From: Candidatus Levybacteria bacterium RIFCSPLOWO2_02_FULL_37_18
Lineage (GTDB): Bacteria; Patescibacteriota; Microgenomatia; Levybacterales; UBA12049
DNA: 62,563 bases
Reading direction: 5' to 3'
Assembly: GCA_001784115.1 (NCBI GenBank)
Contig: MFPD01000002.1
Span: forward strand, 1-62,563
The position numbers and the translations under genes were made by a program. This document shows positions 9,416 through 16,194 of this stretch, in pieces. Under the pieces are notes generated by a model. The model had not been told where the DNA came from, did no database searches, and worked only from the letters and a program-made list of their open reading frames with translations. Each line of letters begins with the position of its first letter. Position 1 is the first letter of the stretch.

Positions 9416-11101
9416 CTAAGACGGAACTGATATGATTTTTTGCTCATTGTTTCCTTTCTTACTTTCTAAATGCACCTTTCTTCCCCAAACCATTGCAACA
9501 GCTTTCAATGCTTTACGAGTTGCTTCCTCATCTAATTCCCTTCCATCAAATGTATGTACTAAATATAGTTCTCTATTGCTATTCCAATCTCCTCCATTTT
9601 CGGCAACCTGAATAAGGGGCAATCCGTTATTTTCAACTGAATCTACCAAAGCTTTTTTTACCGTATTATAATCTCGATTTGTTGTTGAACCGGAAATTGC
9701 GGCAATTCCCAATTCTTCAACTATTTTTGGGGTAAGATAAGAATTCAAAAATCCCCAATCACTGCTAACATTTTCTCTGACATAGAGCGGATCATACTCT
9801 ATTTTCCCAATAAAACTTTTTGGATCTATAAACCGCCCTCTATAATCTTTTTCGCGTATTTCTCTTCTTATTACATCTTCTGACTCTGGGTCAAACTTTC
9901 CAAGTATGTCATCAAATAGAGCAATGCCCAGTTTGTTTGCCAATAATTCATATTCTTTTTCCCACTCTCCATTTGGTTTAATTTTTCCGCTTCTTTCTAA
10001 ATTTCTCATAATATTTCTTGCCACAAATGTTTTCCATCCCTCTAAAAGAATAGCTGTTTGCATTATTGGGTAAAAATACAGCGCCTCGGCTCTTACCATA
10101 GTAAGAACATCTCTTTGCCAGTCTTTTAAAACCGGTGAAAATGCAGCAATAAACCACAATATATCCTGTTCTGGTTTTGAAGGAAAAGGCGGAGGATTTT
10201 TTTCTTTGGGTTTTACGGGAGGACTTAGCAGTGCTCTTTTTTTAGCTTCGAGTTCTTGAAGAAAAACTGTCGCAAGTTGTTTTGCTTCTGGATCCTCCAG
10301 ATACGGTTTTACCTCTGCGATTTGGGAATCTATTTCTCTTAGTTTTTGGACTGATTCAGGAATTTTTGGCAGATCATCGTAGGGTGTTTTTTTCTCGGGT
10401 TTTAAACGTATAGAATCTCTGTGCTTTTGATCGCTTGCTTTTTTATAATCGCCGGGTGAAGATTTATTCGGATCAGATGGATCTATAAACCATTGAATTG
10501 AATACGCCCCGTCCAAAACCGCTTGCACTTCTTTAGCACCAAAATTTACTCCGTATTCTCTGATGCGGCTTGCATATTCTTGAAATATCAGACCCGTATT
10601 TCTGTCTGTTTTTGCAAATGCTTTATTATGTTTATAAAAATCAGCTTGCGCTAAAGCTCGAGCGTATCTCCAGGCGCTCACTGTTATTTTTTCACCTTCG
10701 GGAATATATACATAAGAAGGGTCTGTGTTGGTTACGTGTTCTAAGTGTGATTCCTTCAAACGCGCGTATCGAAGTTGTTGTATCCAATGAAAATATCTTC
10801 CTGGCGCACCGGAAGCGTTATACCGATGAATAAGCTCAACAGGCACTTTTTTACACAACGTATCAAAAGGATCAAGTCCTAATTCATAAGCTGCATCCCT
10901 AACATTTCCTAAAGAAGTCTCAAGATCGTCGGGCTTGGGTATATCTTCTTGCAACGGCACTTCCTGTAAAGACACAAAAGAAACTCTTTCTTTTCTCATT
11001 AAAACCACGTGGTTTGCTGCTCCATTTTTACCAACTCCATTAATACCGAATAAATCTTTTAAACCTCTTAATCTGTTACCTAATCTTTCTGCAATACCCA
11101 T
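9416..11101 (-). CDS. divergent SpoVR family protein
   Basis: ELGLDPF, GAPGRYFHW, NTDPSY, DFYKHN, PEQDILWFI, WQRDVLTMVRAEALYF, LEGW, VHLES; start is coupled (TAATG) to the upstream gene. Confidence 0.75.
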   Translation of the reverse strand: MGIAERLGNRLRGLKDLFGINGVGKNGAANHVVLMRKERVSFVSLQEVPLQEDIPKPDDLETSLGNVRDAAYELGLDPFDTLCKKVPVELIHRYNASGAPGRYFHWIQQLRYARLKESHLEHVTNTDPSYVYIPEGEKITVSAWRYARALAQADFYKHNKAFAKTDRNTGLIFQEYASRIREYGVNFGAKEVQAVLDGAYSIQWFIDPSDPNKSSPGDYKKASDQKHRDSIRLKPEKKTPYDDLPKIPESVQKLREIDSQIAEVKPYLEDPEAKQLATVFLQELEAKKRALLSPPVKPKEKNPPPFPSKPEQDILWFIAAFSPVLKDWQRDVLTMVRAEALYFYPIMQTAILLEGWKTFVARNIMRNLERSGKIKPNGEWEKEYELLANKLGIALFDDILGKFDPESEDVIRREIREKDYRGRFIDPKSFIGKIEYDPLYVRENVSSDWGFLNSYLTPKIVEELGIAAISGSTTNRDYNTVKKALVDSVENNGLPLIQVAENGGDWNSNRELYLVHTFDGRELDEEATRKALKAVAMVWGRKVHLESKKGNNEQKIISVPS

Positions 11102-12243
11102 TATTTTTTTGCCTCCTTCCATCCTGCCTTGGTTAATACAGCTTTTAAAACTTTTGGAACATCCCATTTTTCTGCGATAGTTGCTGTGGTAAAAGTGTTA
11201 TTTTTGACTTGCGCCCATCTTCCAAAGGCAGAATCAAGCTCTCCGGACGCATTTCCGATTCGCACTACCCCTGCCATGCGACACCGAGAAGCAAGATCAA
11301 CAAAACCGGGAAGTGATTTTTCGGTGTCTGCACGACTAATGCTACCGTCGGAAGAAAGCTGAAATACGTAAGCATCCCAACTATCTTTTGGATAATAACG
11401 ACCTACTCTAAAATCCGCGTCTTCATAGCTTGGTCTTTGAGTGCTTATGTTCCCGCCACCTTGAGGAGAAAAAAGAAAAGCTTCAGAAACCACCTCAGGA
11501 GTTTTGGTCTGGTTTATAAGAATTAGTTCTGTATGTCCATACTGCTGTTGGAAAAAAGCCAAAAGCCCAAGATAAAAAAGTTTGGCTAAGTAAATATTCT
11601 TTTCACTTCCCCGTCTTGGCGGAACACCCAAACCAATGACAACTGCGCTGGCACTTTGTTTGGGTTCATCATACGTTGGCATACCCCAAAAATCAGATAT
11701 GCCGGAAACTACCGGACCTTTTTTACCTGCTGCATTCCGTTTGATGTTTTCAAATACTGTTTTTCTTCGTGCAAGGTTGGTAAAAGGAATTGTGGATTTT
11801 CTCGGCGCGTGAAACACTGGAGTTTGAAGACCAAACCCTTCCCCTCGTACAAGTTCTGACGGCACAATACCGATATCTTCCAAAACTATCTGCCTTATTC
11901 TTTCTAACCGCATTGAGGTTTGATCTTCTTGAGAAGCAGATATAATTGAACTTGTTGAAGAAGAATTTGGCGGGGAATCAGGTACATTTGTATCAACTTT
12001 TTTGTATTGTCCCATTACTATTTGAGTATGAGGTAGAGCATAAAAAATACCCGGAACAACAATTCTTGGCAAGCTTACTAAAACCTTAGATTCCAGATCC
12101 GAAGTCAGAATGCTTGTATTCACAACTGCTCTTTGTAAAAAAATCGGGCTGCTTCTTAAAACCTGTTCTTCTATCTCCTCCAATCCATTATGTGGAGGAT
12201 CATCCATTGCCATGTCCAAATACTCATCAATTTCTTTTGCCAT
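11101..12243 (-). CDS. divergent YhbH/YeaH (DUF444) protein
   Basis: RKTVFENIKRN, SAVVI, LAKLFY..QQQYGHTELI, YPKDSWDAYVFQLSSDG; adjacent to a SpoVR-like gene. Confidence 0.65.
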   Translation of the reverse strand: MAKEIDEYLDMAMDDPPHNGLEEIEEQVLRSSPIFLQRAVVNTSILTSDLESKVLVSLPRIVVPGIFYALPHTQIVMGQYKKVDTNVPDSPPNSSSTSSIISASQEDQTSMRLERIRQIVLEDIGIVPSELVRGEGFGLQTPVFHAPRKSTIPFTNLARRKTVFENIKRNAAGKKGPVVSGISDFWGMPTYDEPKQSASAVVIGLGVPPRRGSEKNIYLAKLFYLGLLAFFQQQYGHTELILINQTKTPEVVSEAFLFSPQGGGNISTQRPSYEDADFRVGRYYPKDSWDAYVFQLSSDGSISRADTEKSLPGFVDLASRCRMAGVVRIGNASGELDSAFGRWAQVKNNTFTTATIAEKWDVPKVLKAVLTKAGWKEAKK

Positions 12244-12360: not shown

Positions 12361-13734
12361 ATGCCTAAAGAAACTTTACCTAACGCTTTTACGGTAAACG
12401 CAGTAGACGCAACCGGCTTTGCTATTGCTCCTCCTGTAACAAACGGGGTTGCTAAGCAAACAGAAATAACTTTATTTCCGCCTGCTCCAAAGTCTGATAA
12501 CAATGCGCCCTTAGACGAAAGTGTACATTTATACATGAAAGAAATTTCCAAGATTCCCGTCTTGACGCACCAACGAGAAATTGCCCTTTGCGAAAGAATT
12601 GCAAAAGCAACCGCAAGCGCGTTTCTGCTGCAAGCTTTCCAGGATGATAAAGAGGTTCAACCGATAAACGAACTTTCTCCACCAAGACTTACTCAAAACA
12701 TTCTAGAACCGATACCTATGTATAATTCATTTGCAGCTCTTCCGTTTGAATTTATTGTAAGAAAACCAAAAAAACCAAATAAAAAAATCAATACAAAAAA
12801 CAAAGACGGCTCGGATATGGTAAGAGAGGGAATTGTCACAAGCATTAAGCTCCTACCTGACCATGACCCAAAAACTCTTTTTAATTCAAACAGTGAGTAT
12901 GATGATTTTATTCAACAACTCTACGCTAATCTTAAAAATGGCCAAGAAGCAAAACAAGAGTTAATTATTCATAATCTTCGTTTGGTAGCAAATATTGCAA
13001 AAGAATATGCATCCAAAATGCATCTCTTGTCAGACTTAATTCAGGAAGGAAATTTAGGGCTTTACAAAGCGGTTGAAAAATTTGACGAAACCAGGGGTTA
13101 TAAATTTTCCTCATACGCGACCTGGTGGATAATACAAGCTATTACAAAAGCAAGGTCAAACACGGGAAATGTAATCCGTATTCCAATACATATAAAAGAT
13201 GCGCTATCCAGTCTGGATAAAACAGAACGTGAATTCTATCTTGAATATCACAGACATCCAATTCCTTTAGAAGCAGCCGTATATGAATTTCAACAAACTT
13301 TTCTTAAAACCAATAACCGCCTGCCAAACCCGGAAGAATTTACCGACGAACAAATTCAAAACGTATGTAAGAGGGCAAAATATATTGTAGGATTAAAAAG
13401 AGCGCGCGCGATTCAGCCGAAAAGCTTGGAATCTCCCCTCTTAATTGAAAACAGAGAGGAATCTGACCAAGGATTAGGCTCTTTTATAGAAGCAGATTCT
13501 GATGTTGCCAAATATGTGTTAAACAGAGTATTCATAAAAGATGCTATTGATCAAGTAGGGTTATCCAAACGAGAATTATATATTCTTTACATGGTTTATG
13601 TCCTTGAATTCAAGCTAAAAGACGTTGGGGACAAACTACCAAGACCAGTAACCAAAGAACGGGTCCGTCAGATTCATGCCCAAGCTTTAAAAAAACTGAG
13701 AAGCTCTCTCAATGTAACGGATTCAGAAACCTAA
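12361..13734 (+). CDS. RpoD-like sigma70 family factor (divergent; probably a non-primary paralog)
   Basis: Region 1.2 VHLYMKEI; regions 2.1-2.4 HNLRLV, DLIQEGNLGL..AVEKFD..RGYKFSSYATWWI; region 4 VTKERVRQI. Confidence 0.85.
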   Translation: MPKETLPNAFTVNAVDATGFAIAPPVTNGVAKQTEITLFPPAPKSDNNAPLDESVHLYMKEISKIPVLTHQREIALCERIAKATASAFLLQAFQDDKEVQPINELSPPRLTQNILEPIPMYNSFAALPFEFIVRKPKKPNKKINTKNKDGSDMVREGIVTSIKLLPDHDPKTLFNSNSEYDDFIQQLYANLKNGQEAKQELIIHNLRLVANIAKEYASKMHLLSDLIQEGNLGLYKAVEKFDETRGYKFSSYATWWIIQAITKARSNTGNVIRIPIHIKDALSSLDKTEREFYLEYHRHPIPLEAAVYEFQQTFLKTNNRLPNPEEFTDEQIQNVCKRAKYIVGLKRARAIQPKSLESPLLIENREESDQGLGSFIEADSDVAKYVLNRVFIKDAIDQVGLSKRELYILYMVYVLEFKLKDVGDKLPRPVTKERVRQIHAQALKKLRSSLNVTDSET

Positions 13735-14864
13735 ATTCGCTCCTTACCTTCTTTTTCCATGGCTGCGATTTGCTCGTGTCTCCAGTTGAAAATCCTAGAT
13801 TTAACCGTACCTAATGGCTGTCCGGTTATTTGAGCAATCTCTCTGTCTGTATTACTTCCAAACACTCTTAATTTTACCTCGACCGGAATAGTCGGATCTT
13901 CTATAATTCTTCTATACTCTTCGTCGTCTGATTCTTCAATTGATATCTCCATTTCTCCCCGATCAATTGCAGCAACTACTTTTCTATATCGTTTTAGCTT
14001 TCTTACTTCACCTCTTATACAATTAATAACTAAGGTAAAAATAAATCCCATCTGTCCTGATGAATTAAAAGGAAAACGCATTATATTTCGAGGTGATAAC
14101 AATTTTTTAGAAACTTCTTGCACGACATCTTGAGGATCTAAAGGTGGTCTTGCACGCCAGGACGCAACCGTATTCATCCATTGCTGAACTTCTCTTCTTG
14201 CTATTGCATTTATTCTGTCTCCTCCATCAAGGGTATAGGCAATACGCTTTTCCTCTTCTTGTAAAGAAGTATTAAACCATTCTTTGTCAACGGATCTGCC
14301 AATTTTTCCGTATTTGTTTAATAAACTCGTATCTTCTGCTCCAGCATCTACACACGCTTTATAAAATACCTCAAGTCTTAAAAGATTCGCGAAGGATTCC
14401 TCAATTGTACTTCTTCCCTTTTGTTCCCAAAGCGTACCTAGTCTATTCCAATAGGTAAGATCAAAGGTAAAAAACCCTTCCTTAAACAGTCTGTGCGCAA
14501 ACTCAAATTCCATAGTTTGTTCTTTTGTATATCCCCCTCTTTTTTCAACTTCCCATTTATTTTTAATTGCTTTACTTATTTTTTGCCGCTTTTTATCTTG
14601 AGAAAGAGAAGATAAATCTCCTCCCTGTCTTAAATTATTTCCCAAAATATCTATCTTTTTTCTATCGGCACGGGCAATTTGAGCAATTTCTTCATTTGTT
14701 CCTACCAGTCTTAGAAAAAACGGATATACCAACTCCCTTATTCCTTTATGGGCTTGGCTCATATGATTTCTCGATGCTTCTGTATGAACTGTTCCCCGAA
14801 GTTTATCTCCTATTCTTCTCCGTGTCTCAAAAGAAAGACTGCGTGTTGCTTGGGTTTCTTTCAC
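13731..14864 (-). CDS. protein with NUMOD3-like N-terminus and C-terminal ECF-type sigma domains
   Basis: HTEASRNHMSQAHKG; QDVVQEV..FTLVINCIRGEVRK; DREIAQITGQPLGTVKSRI; GTG start chosen to avoid overlap with rpmE. Confidence 0.6.
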   Translation of the reverse strand: MKETQATRSLSFETRRRIGDKLRGTVHTEASRNHMSQAHKGIRELVYPFFLRLVGTNEEIAQIARADRKKIDILGNNLRQGGDLSSLSQDKKRQKISKAIKNKWEVEKRGGYTKEQTMEFEFAHRLFKEGFFTFDLTYWNRLGTLWEQKGRSTIEESFANLLRLEVFYKACVDAGAEDTSLLNKYGKIGRSVDKEWFNTSLQEEEKRIAYTLDGGDRINAIARREVQQWMNTVASWRARPPLDPQDVVQEVSKKLLSPRNIMRFPFNSSGQMGFIFTLVINCIRGEVRKLKRYRKVVAAIDRGEMEISIEESDDEEYRRIIEDPTIPVEVKLRVFGSNTDREIAQITGQPLGTVKSRIFNWRHEQIAAMEKEGKERI

Positions 14865-14902
14865 ATTGCGGATTATACCTAAATAGTGTATGATATAGCA
14901 AT

Positions 14903-15211
14903 ATGAAAGCCAATATTCACCCGCAATATTTTGATAACGCAACCGTGATTTGCTCATGCGGAAATAAGTTTACCACCGGCTCAACAGTCGAACTCATTCA
15001 TATTGAACTCTGCAGCAAGTGTCACCCGTTTTATACAGGAGAACAGCGCTTTGTAGACAGTGCTTCCCGAATTCAAAAATTCCAGCAAAAACAACAAACT
15101 GCTACTCAAAAACCATATGTCAGCAAAAAAGCAAAGCTCGCTAAAAAACAACAAAAATCTAATTCTGCCCCAAAGACTCTACGGGAAATGCTGCTTGAGG
15201 TTTCAAAATAG
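14903..15211 (+). CDS. rpmE: 50S ribosomal protein L31 (Zn-binding type, C-terminal extension)
   Basis: [23 protein letters not shown]. Confidence 0.95.
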
Positions 15212-15218
15212 CCCCATT

Positions 15219-15276
15219 GTCATTCCGAATTTGTTTCGGAATCCCATGTGGGATACTGAAATGAATTCAGGATGAC
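15219..15276. repeat. GTCAT...ATGAC palindromic element
   Basis: GTCATTCCGAATTTGTTTCGGAATC..GATACTGAAATGAATTCAGGATGAC. Confidence 0.85.
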
Positions 15277-15282
15277 AAAAAC

Positions 15283-16194
15283 ATGAACGATTATAGAACA
15301 ATTCAAATTGCCGAGCTTGATAAAAAAATTGAAGAAACAAAACTTCTTCTTTCTGATCCTGCTATGGCCGAACTTGCACAATCAGAAATAAATGCTTTAA
15401 AACAACAAAAAAAAGAGCTTGAACTATCTCTTAAAGGTTCGGAAGAACAAGCCTCAAAAGACGATCTAGACCAAAGAAACGCGATCTTGGAGTTAAGCGG
15501 AGCTGCGGGCGGAGAAGAAGCAAGATTATGGGGCGAAGAACTTTTGCGCATGTATAATAGATTTGCGCAAAAAAAAGGATTTAAAGTCGAACAACCTGAT
15601 GAAGATGTCATAAAAATTACAGGTCCGAATGCTTTTGGAACATTTAAATTCGAAGCAGGCGTACATCGGGTCCAAAGAATTCCCCAAACAGAAAAGCGGG
15701 GAAGAATTCATACTTCAACAGCAACTGTTTCTGTATTGCCAGAACTTGAAGATTTAGATTTGCATATAAATCCCGATGACATAGAATTTGAAGCATTTCG
15801 AAGCGGAGGCCACGGGGGTCAGAATGTTAATAAAGTTTCAACAGCTGTCAGACTGAAACACAAACCAACTGGAATTGTCGTCACGTGTTCGATGGAGCGC
15901 TCCCAAGGCCAAAACCGAGATCTGGCCATGGAAATGATTCGGGCAAAACTTTGGGAAATCGAAGTGGAAAAACGCCATGGTGAACTTTCTTCTTTAAAAT
16001 CAACTCAAGTGGGTAGAGGCATGCGGGCTGAAAAAATTAGAACGTATAACTTCCCTCAAGACAGACTCACGGATCACAGAATCAATAAATCCTGGAGAAA
16101 TTTGGAAGTAATTTTAGACGGCAACCTTCTGGAAATCCTGGAAGAATTAAAAACCCAAAGTGCTAGCGGAGAAAAGCCAAATCCTTTACCTTAA
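15283..16194 (+). CDS. prfA: peptide chain release factor 1
   Basis: GVHRVQRIPQTE (PxT), GGQNVNK, IRTYNFPQDR. Confidence 0.93.
   Translation: MNDYRTIQIAELDKKIEETKLLLSDPAMAELAQSEINALKQQKKELELSLKGSEEQASKDDLDQRNAILELSGAAGGEEARLWGEELLRMYNRFAQKKGFKVEQPDEDVIKITGPNAFGTFKFEAGVHRVQRIPQTEKRGRIHTSTATVSVLPELEDLDLHINPDDIEFEAFRSGGHGGQNVNKVSTAVRLKHKPTGIVVTCSMERSQGQNRDLAMEMIRAKLWEIEVEKRHGELSSLKSTQVGRGMRAEKIRTYNFPQDRLTDHRINKSWRNLEVILDGNLLEILEELKTQSASGEKPNPLP

Follow-up and report, generated by a model that had tools for sequence, protein, structure and literature searches.

An ECF-type sigma module joined to a NUMOD3-like N-terminal array in a protein of Candidatus Levybacteria

The protein described here, P0001, consists of 377 amino acids (aa) and is encoded on the minus strand (13731..14864) of a 62,563-nucleotide (nt) stretch of contig MFPD01000002.1 from Candidatus Levybacteria bacterium RIFCSPLOWO2_02_FULL_37_18; this whole stretch is referred to as the window. 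P0001 combines a C-terminal sigma-factor module of the extracytoplasmic function (ECF) type with an N-terminal head of 212 residues, which begins with modules resembling the DNA-binding parts of homing endonucleases. This domain make-up is secure. With the single sequence, both domain calls are no more than chance; together with the relatives of the protein, both ends are real. An earlier reading, made from the letters of the DNA only (the sequence-only reading), had described NUMOD3-like motifs, a long segment of unknown sequence, and sigma2- and sigma4-like segments, and had proposed an undescribed sigma architecture. On roughly balanced evidence, P0001 is regarded as a working ECF-type sigma factor whose N-terminal array adds upstream DNA contacts.

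Domain composition

The gene and the parts of its product are given below from the N- to the C-terminus, with residue numbers of the 377-aa form, the mean or range of the predicted local distance difference test (pLDDT), and the isoelectric point (pI) where these characterize the part.

13731..14864, minus strand: whole gene, 377 aa, GTG start at 14864, TAG stop at 13731-13733 (list of open reading frames, ORFs)
14742..14864, minus strand: aa 1-41, two NUMOD3-like basic helices (SLSFETRRRIGDKLRG; HTEASRNHMSQAHKG), predicted at residues 12-23 and 29-39; pLDDT 83-94, pI 11.4
14613..14741, minus strand: aa 42-84, three-helix helix-turn-helix (HTH), sigma4/LuxR-like (YPFFLRL..NEEIAQIA..DRKKIDILGNNLRQ), helices predicted at 42-50, 57-64, and 68-81; pLDDT 94-97
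14529..14612, minus strand: aa 85-112, third NUMOD3-like basic helix (SQDKKRQKISKAIKNKWEVEKRGG), predicted at 89-109; pI 10.2
14229..14528, minus strand: aa 113-212, acidic all-helical core of no known family; hidden Markov model (HMM) match in 138/139 proteins, pLDDT 80-98, pI 5.2
13965..14228, minus strand: aa 213-300, sigma-70 region 2, ECF type; PDB profile matches, leave-one-out HMM, VIA-align
13899..13964, minus strand: aa 301-322, acidic sigma2-sigma4 linker, no region 3; pLDDT, pI 4.1
13734..13898, minus strand: aa 323-377, sigma-70 region 4 HTH (REIAQITGQPLGTVKSRI); Pfam (sub-threshold), PDB phmmer, profiles, VIA-align

The C-terminal sigma module

The C-terminus of P0001 (aa 213-377) is supported as an ECF-type (group 4) module made of sigma2, linker, and sigma4. 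A profile of the 14 family members that carry the module (the fused members) was compared with all PDB sequences, and all 27 matches at E<=0.01 are sigma factors, headed by SigW (5wuq, 3.2e-18), SigH (5zx2, 4.5e-17), and SigL (6dv9, 6.2e-15). These matches span profile positions 264-428, which correspond to regions 2 and 4. A leave-one-out profile, built from the 13 other fused members, recovers aa 225-367 of P0001 at 43.1 bits. The Sigma70_r2 cut-off of Pfam is passed by seven fused relatives in a scan of 50 proteins, comprising 49 relatives of 320 aa or more and P0128. Neither Sigma70_r3 nor Sigma70_r1 is matched by P0001 in Pfam, and none of the searches identifies the N-terminal extension as region 1.1.

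An AlphaFold model was built on a 67-row alignment chosen to keep the sigma part in register; from the single sequence, pLDDT was 39 and the model unusable. The alignment-based model reaches a pLDDT of 85.6 and a predicted template modelling score (pTM) of 0.62, with most of the sigma module at 80-95. Superposition by VIA-align on 48,161 PDB representatives places sigma2 of Bartonella RpoE (5uxx_C) on top, with Z 10.1 and a root-mean-square deviation of 2.8 A over 84 residues (model 213-299). Region 4 (model 309-375) is matched by CnrH, SigR, SigE, SigL, and SigW at Z 5.2-6.2, and the PhyR/NepR structure 3t0y is also returned, at Z 5.4. Foldseek against the PDB lists 50 rows, every one a sigma chain, at E-values of 0.04 or worse, and in the viral library BFVD phage ECF-type sigmas lead; no match at E<=0.001 was obtained in either library. 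The poor E-values are attributed to the several domains of the model. Sigma2 of the model ends near aa 300 and sigma4 starts near aa 314-323; the linker is disordered at residues 296-311, where the pLDDT is below 50.

The motif GQPLGTVKSRI, at aa 348-358, aligns to RpoE (2q1z) and contains the textbook region 4.2 motif 'LGTVKSR'. The sigma2-like and sigma4 segments seen by the sequence-only reading are therefore borne out by the fused-family profile, by the leave-one-out profile, and by superposition of the predicted structure, and the structural support for sigma2 that it had wanted checked is present in the model in the form of the RpoE match.

Searches with P0001 alone give sub-threshold Pfam matches to NUMOD3 (13.2 bits, E 0.089; cut-off 20.4) and to Sigma70_r4_2 (15.4 bits, E 0.014; cut-off 25.7). 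NCBIfam returns 12 weak matches, 11 of which are sigma-factor models (best E 0.0016). Region 4 of RpoE and SigR is matched by phmmer in the PDB at E 0.1-0.5, and a phage sigma family in PHROGs at E 0.0022. A word-indexed homolog search with the protein finds P0001 itself as the sole match.

The N-terminal array and the core domain

Comparison with relatives supports the N-terminus as probable DNA-binding hardware of the homing-endonuclease type. The two motifs that had been read as NUMOD3-like lie at aa 27-41 (HTEASRNHMSQAHKG) and aa 92-101 (KRQKISKAIK), and the helix containing the latter aligns with the stretch 'PTKEE..AKRRAHLGK' of relatives. Pfam NUMOD3 (PF07460) is matched at E<=0.01 by 12 of the 139 proteins of the family search described below (best E 1.3e-6). 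In P0003 the match reaches 27.1 bits, above the cut-off of 20.4, at the position aligned with HTEASRNHMSQAH of P0001. Two PHROG families of homing endonucleases are matched by 10/139 and 8/139 members. Since no nuclease family is found among the 23 Pfam families that the 139 members match at E<=0.01, the simplest reading of these PHROG matches is that they concern the DNA-binding repeats.

When a profile was made from 65 sigma-less members, its HTH part retrieved region 4 of SigH (3mzy, E 0.0065) and a repeat designed as an HTH (8vd6, E 2.3e-10), and HTH_23 or HTH_28 of Pfam is found in some relatives. The ESM Atlas gave no usable match for aa 1-215 of P0001, and P0002 gave only HTH-type leads below 0.9. 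The NUMOD3-like motifs at the N-terminus are supported by the relatives, the confidently predicted helices, and a pI of 10-11. The claim of about 200 aa of unknown sequence behind them has to be narrowed: it fails for the HTH (aa 42-84) and the third NUMOD3-like helix (aa 85-112) and stands for aa 113-212, which belong to no known family. The head was also considered as a second, permuted sigma factor, and this was rejected, as the hhalign scores are too weak (core against ECF sigmas 10%, N-terminal HTH against region 4 20%).

The core domain (aa 113-212) shows no Pfam match and no PDB sequence match, and hhalign aligns it to sigma2 at 10% probability. Residue E165 is nearly invariant across the family. 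In 8 of 138 members (P0004, P0027, P0058, P0091, P0119, P0120, P0124, and P0135) the core of roughly 100 aa is duplicated in tandem, an arrangement that hints that single-domain members may act as dimers. A predicted dimer of two copies of aa 108-216 scores 0.34, 0.02, and 0.04, the mark being 0.42.

A protein family mostly without a sigma module

The 377-aa form was searched exhaustively with HMMER against 1.84 billion cluster representatives, and 139 proteins were returned at E<=1e-3, the query included, and 41 at E<=1e-10. Most of these relatives align with residues of about 10-212 only. The HMM of the core (residues of about 113-212) misses a single protein, P0128, which is a plain ECF sigma of 194 aa. 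A sigma module, as detected by an HMM of the C-terminal part, is present in 14 of the 138 family clusters (P0001, P0010, P0011, P0016, P0021, P0025, P0039, P0042, P0097, P0108, P0109, P0117, P0122, and P0130) and lacking in 124. The N-terminal 212 aa are consequently a protein family of their own, about 90% of whose clusters have no sigma module. A search for the same architecture, recommended by the sequence-only reading, accordingly yields 13 other fused cluster representatives beside P0001, and the fused representatives show about 16-27% identity to it.

In the order to which the window belongs, the family profile matches 26 of 245 genomes and 20 of 103 genera. In a phylum sample of 401 genomes, the sigma part is matched in 207; among the matches listed, the frames are mostly 170-240 aa long, and of the 150 matches listed that of P0001 alone covers the head; a further 190 matches lie outside this list. 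A word-indexed search with the fused alignment gave 84 matches, 82 of them ordinary ECF sigmas and the remaining two P0001 and P0108. A scan of viral contigs with the target protein found nothing; it used exact peptide patterns only and is very insensitive.

Three loci show how the modules can be arranged. In G175, a fused form of 641 aa with two core domains lies at the rpmE site. In G132 (L010 1031-2331, minus strand), also at the rpmE site, a head ORF (306 aa) shares 58 nt with a sigma ORF (145 aa) that is read in another frame. The simplest explanation is a fusion split by a frameshift, and the locus could represent a pseudogene, a sequencing error, or a case of programmed frameshifting. 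In G111 (L078 2660-5167, minus strand), a canonical ECF sigma of 231 aa lies 243 bp upstream of a family gene of 522 aa on the same strand. By eye, this 522-aa member consists of repeated HTH and NUMOD3-like modules followed by a single C-terminal core domain, and its gene does not lie beside rpmE. Where fused members have the sigma module, several sigma-less members (alignment A6, columns 440-540) have another conserved tail, 'G.DE.G.F....G.KWR....V.FDN..LA..R'. As judged from the alignment, this tail appears to be a second, uncharacterised C-terminal option.

Linkage to rpmE

The family is linked to rpmE and not to the RpoD paralog that adjoins it in the window. Across 20 genera of the order, rpmE is divergent from the family gene in 23 of 26 loci, with G161, G162, and G111 as exceptions. 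On the opposite flank the gene differs between loci: it encodes HisS, an EamA-type transporter, or, in the window, the RpoD paralog. Five genomes of the same taxonomic family that lack the protein family all retain rpmE-prfA. In four of them a same-strand gene abuts rpmE (hisS, an EamA-like transporter twice, and an ABC-type transporter, named by eye), and in the fifth an unrelated divergent ORF of 196 aa lies beside it. The features of the window that matter here are the following.

14903..15211, plus strand: rpmE (ribosomal protein L31), divergent neighbour (ORF)
14872..14901, minus strand: promoter-like site of the P0001 gene, TTGCTA, 18 nt, TATAAT, 7 nt to GTG; putative, from a consensus scan and leaderless geometry
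12361..13734, plus strand: convergent RpoD-like sigma paralog, 457 aa; Pfam regions 1.2, 2, and 4; not the housekeeping sigma

The two divergent starts are separated by 38 bp (14865-14902), as had been stated. In this region, four promoter-like sites were found, with 4.6 expected from shuffles. On the plus strand, a site preceding rpmE was recognized by eye (TTGCGG-17-TATGAT, ending 8 nt before the ATG), and the consensus scan gives a different, weaker one (TTCACA-16-AATAGT). The putative promoters of the two genes would coincide on about 36 bp, one on each strand.

A -10-like hexamer (TATAAT, TAAAAT, or TATGAT) lies 6-9 nt before the rpmE ATG in 15 of 17 loci, whether the family gene is present or not, and by eye no Shine-Dalgarno sequence precedes rpmE in the loci with such a close hexamer. 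This pattern suggests that rpmE messages may be leaderless in the order of the window. Locus L009 carries a hairpin-like insertion of about 45 nt between the -10-like hexamer and the rpmE ATG. A spacer, 'CAAAAACARG', recognized by eye before rpmE in seven family-positive loci was considered as an operator and discarded; it is absent from the window and several other family-positive loci and probably reflects kinship.

Phylogeny and co-occurrence with other sigma factors

The family tree follows the labels of the host families with two changes, which is the minimum, and none of 200 shuffles is as low; vertical descent with loss therefore fits better than homing. The median end branch amounts to 1.2 changes per column. 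In a tree of the sigma modules, 11 of 15 fused modules group together (SH-aLRT 80). Constraining all 15 to one clade improves the log-likelihood by 9.84 units relative to the free tree (p-AU 0.649), and a single origin is not rejected. In the poorly resolved tree of the heads, the fused forms are scattered, with 12 changes between fused and unfused forms, two of which are forced by supported branches.

Of the 26 family-positive genomes, 16 have a frame of ECF size above the Sigma70_r4_2 cut-off, as do 13 of 26 family-negative genomes, which were hand-picked and are highly complete. Co-occurrence of the family with stand-alone ECF sigmas thus shows no excess in this comparison.

The genome of the window has 1.11 Mb in 31 contigs and is 96.5% complete. 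Its housekeeping RpoD is encoded on contig C1 (511.6 bits to PRK09210; RpoD_Cterm 380.9 at a cut-off of 354), whereas the convergent 457-aa paralog reaches only 159.6 bits against that RpoD_Cterm cut-off. The fused-family profile, run over this genome, matches P0001 only and reveals neither a second family copy nor another ECF-type sigma. A Sigma70_r2 (PF04542) scan of the genome finds only the three RpoD-like sigmas and a FliA-like fragment. For a genome of 1.1 Mb this is a rich sigma set. The two diverged RpoD-like paralogs (457 and 445 aa) carry long inserts between regions 1.2 and 2. The FliA-like fragment has 174 aa and matches only the first half of the FliA/WhiG models; its region 4 appears to be missing.

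Proposed function and alternatives

According to the favoured reading, the sigma module would bind core RNA polymerase and read -35 and -10 elements as other ECF sigmas do, and the basic N-terminal array would lie on the DNA upstream of or beside the promoter. By analogy with I-TevI and I-HmuI, the contacts of the array may be made by minor-groove helices and one major-groove HTH. The array might in this way lengthen the recognised site, limit the sigma factor to very few promoters, and act as an activator tethered in cis. One target could be the control region shared by rpmE and the gene itself, which is proposed because the family lies near-constantly back-to-back with rpmE. The reading of a cis-tethered anchor is preferred because an intact sigma2/sigma4 pair is kept in 14 deeply diverged clusters, because the head is of DNA-binding type, and because the linkage of the two is found in four genomes.

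Several observations weigh against it. Sigma2 of P0001 is too diverged to be matched on its own: no Sigma70_r2 match to the target alone is found by the Pfam scan at E<=1. The Asp that is conserved in the 'N.A.D..R' stretch of fused relatives is a Gly in P0001, and the nearly invariant Pro of the family in column 155 is lacking. In the sigma tree, the branch leading to the P0001 module is very long (2.1-2.6 changes per column), and two taxon samples placed this module differently. The promoter-like site of the gene looks sigma-70-like and not ECF-like. No Sigma70_r4_2 match is found in six of the 26 family-positive genomes, including G090 (98% complete), G015 (97%), and G048 (95%), and a function of the head that is independent of sigma follows from this. 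The roughly 90% of family clusters mentioned above work without any sigma module. The divergence of sigma2, the substituted Asp, and the sigma-less majority count among the weaknesses of the reading.

A first alternative, considered rather unlikely, is that the 212-aa extension is an autoinhibitory or regulatory head, comparable to an anti-sigma domain or a pro-sequence, which holds sigma2 and sigma4 inactive until a signal or proteolysis releases them; DNA binding would then be secondary. Precedents are BldN (ECF121), whose N-terminal extension is cleaved to give the mature sigma, SigC (ECF36s4), whose extension is proposed to block DNA contact, and ECF36s3, in which an anti-sigma gene appears fused to the N-terminus (PMC7826278). 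In G111 a stand-alone ECF sigma is directly followed, on the same strand, by the family gene, which takes the position usual for an anti-sigma gene. Further, the core domain is acidic (pI 5.2), and the pTM of the model may permit some fixed packing between domains. Against this stands the profile of 65 sigma-less members, in which five of six PDB rows at E<=10 are of HTH type and the sixth is a coat protein (E 2.6), with no anti-sigma among them. Three basic NUMOD3-like helices and an HTH play no role in known anti-sigma domains. Moreover, stand-alone sigmas of ECF size are not commoner in family-positive genomes, and six of these genomes show no ECF-type region 4 at all.

A second alternative appears similarly improbable. 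It sees the protein as a DNA-binding regulator, i.e. a transcription factor or architectural protein, of the control region of rpmE-prfA and its own gene, in which a relic sigma module has ceased to recruit polymerase and provides only an additional HTH or a surface for interactions. The module would in this respect resemble the sigma-like domain of PhyR, which is not known to act as a sigma factor. Such a role is consistent with the 124 sigma-less clusters and with a linkage to rpmE (23/26 loci) that holds with the sigma module present or not. A sigma2 that is invisible to Pfam and sits on a long branch, the interleaving of fused and unfused forms on the head tree, where only two of the 12 changes are forced by well-supported branches, and the frameshift between head and sigma in the G132 copy point the same way. 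A relic is harder to reconcile with a sigma2-sigma4 pair that is kept open and is predicted to be well folded, with a textbook region 4.2 motif, and with the recurrence of the module in 14 clusters that have diverged to about 20-27% identity, which argues for selection. The fused sigma modules are, in addition, compatible with a single old lineage.

A more far-reaching reading is decidedly speculative: this lineage may have domesticated DNA-binding arrays of homing endonucleases, which would serve as promoter anchors for long sites, with the fused protein representing a new sigma class. Promoter choice would then be ruled by the extended-site module instead of the -35 and -10 elements, so that the sigma would act at a single promoter or at very few. 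A fused ancestor is proposed because the trees do not reject one origin for the fused sigma modules, and the many descendants without a sigma module would retain the anchor to regulate the rpmE-prfA region in trans. If this were true, a translation-factor operon would be tied to a private transcription switch.

A domesticated or decaying selfish element, i.e. a former homing endonuclease that homed upstream of rpmE, lost its nuclease, has little host function, and acquired the sigma fusion incidentally, is highly improbable: the homing-endonuclease-type hardware, the patchy occurrence (26/245 genomes), the single fixed intergenic position, next to a conserved gene, that is cleanly vacant in relatives, and the very fast evolution of the family would suit it, but no nuclease is found among the Pfam families of the members, the family tree tracks the host labels (0/200 shuffles), the core domain is conserved over 138 clusters, and no close relative was found in viral contigs by the very insensitive search mentioned above.

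Comparison with known systems

ECF (group 4) sigmas such as SigW (5wuq), SigH (5zx2), SigL (6dv9), and RpoE (1or7, 5uxx) consist, like the C-terminus of P0001, of sigma2, a short linker, and sigma4 without region 3. P0001 differs from them by its 212-aa N-terminal extension with DNA-binding-type modules of its own, by a sigma2 too diverged for Pfam, and by the lack of a neighbouring anti-sigma candidate: its neighbours are the convergent RpoD-like sigma and the divergent rpmE. Many ECF groups lack an anti-sigma factor (PMC7826278). Ordinary ECFs of the same phylum, among the matches listed, are stand-alone proteins of 170-240 aa.

N-terminal extensions of ECF sigmas are described as rarer and 'generally shorter' than C-terminal ones (PMC7826278). 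BldN, SigC, ECF36s3, and the long isoforms of sigma-R/SigH share with P0001 an extra sequence N-terminal to the ECF core (PMC7826278). In the passages on these extensions, they appear as pro-sequences, degradation tags, blockers of DNA contact, and membrane anti-sigma parts, and none is described there as a DNA-binding array (PMC7826278). The term 'NUMOD' has 0 occurrences in the searched part of one of its supplement files (PMC7826278).

I-HmuI, I-TevI, and I-BmoI bind DNA with NUMOD3 helices in the minor groove together with an HTH (PMC3664794). The head of P0001 seems to share with these enzymes the short basic NUMOD3-type helices interleaved with an HTH. It differs from them in that none of the 139 members has a nuclease domain, that the array is accompanied by a novel helical domain, with a sigma module as a further partner in 14 clusters, and that the NUMOD3 score of P0001 itself is below the cut-off. 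A functional analogy is offered by CarD-CarG of Myxococcus xanthus, where a separate DNA-binding module (HMGA-type in CarD) serves as a DNA anchor working with an ECF sigma (PMC4374960, PMC2919716). CarD is a separate polypeptide with unrelated domains (CarD_CdnL_TRCF, HMGA), for which no homology is claimed, whereas the putative anchor of P0001 is fused in cis. No paper on a NUMOD3-type head fused to a sigma factor was found in the literature searched, which left subscription journals outside its scope; within these bounds, the architecture can still be called undescribed.

ECF sigmas form the largest class of alternative sigmas. The additions known for them are nearly always sensors at the C-terminus or short pro-sequences at the N-terminus (PMC7826278). 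A sigma factor with a sequence-reading array of its own would, if the favoured reading is true, represent a new way to set promoter specificity, with the activator fused in cis. It would also provide a compact, orthogonal part for synthetic circuits, a documented reuse of homing-endonuclease DNA-binding modules for transcription, and a first handle on gene regulation in uncultured bacteria with tiny genomes. The strict linkage of the family to rpmE-prfA supplies a concrete, testable target.

Gene borders, assembly, and neighbouring genes

The open frame on the minus strand extends over 13731..14957 and would give 408 aa counted from its first ATG. A public protein collection holds an identical 377-aa form starting at GTG 14864, with eight member sequences on three contigs. 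The alignments of relatives begin at residues 4-10 of P0001, and translation therefore starts at or before this GTG. A start at ATG 14957 is the less likely choice, since the resulting 408-aa form would run 55 nt into rpmE and would begin with 31 aa that the deposited protein does not have.

The tail-to-tail arrangement with the RpoD paralog (12361..13734, plus strand) is as the sequence-only reading had it. The TAA stop of the paralog (13732-13734) and the TAG stop of the P0001 gene (13731-13733) lie on opposite strands, and the overlap of 4 nt (13731-13734) given before is correct when the stops are counted.

Positions 13400-15300 are spanned by Logan contigs of three public groundwater or soil metagenome runs, which may be source samples of the genome, with 0 differences and 0 gaps. 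An assembly chimera as the origin of the fusion is rejected on the basis of this unchanged span in all three runs.

Between rpmE and prfA, many additional short contigs fall on two stretches of 29-31 nt (15215-15246 and 15252-15281). The summed k-mer depth of these stretches is 4-10x that of the flanks in all four runs; hence a short repeat of this region also occurs in other places or organisms. Just upstream of the RpoD paralog, two minus-strand genes overlap (window 9416-12243): one is SpoVR-like (583 aa, Pfam SpoVR 3e-48), the other DUF444/YeaH-like (380 aa), and of the latter's product only the C-terminal 160 aa match the Pfam model.

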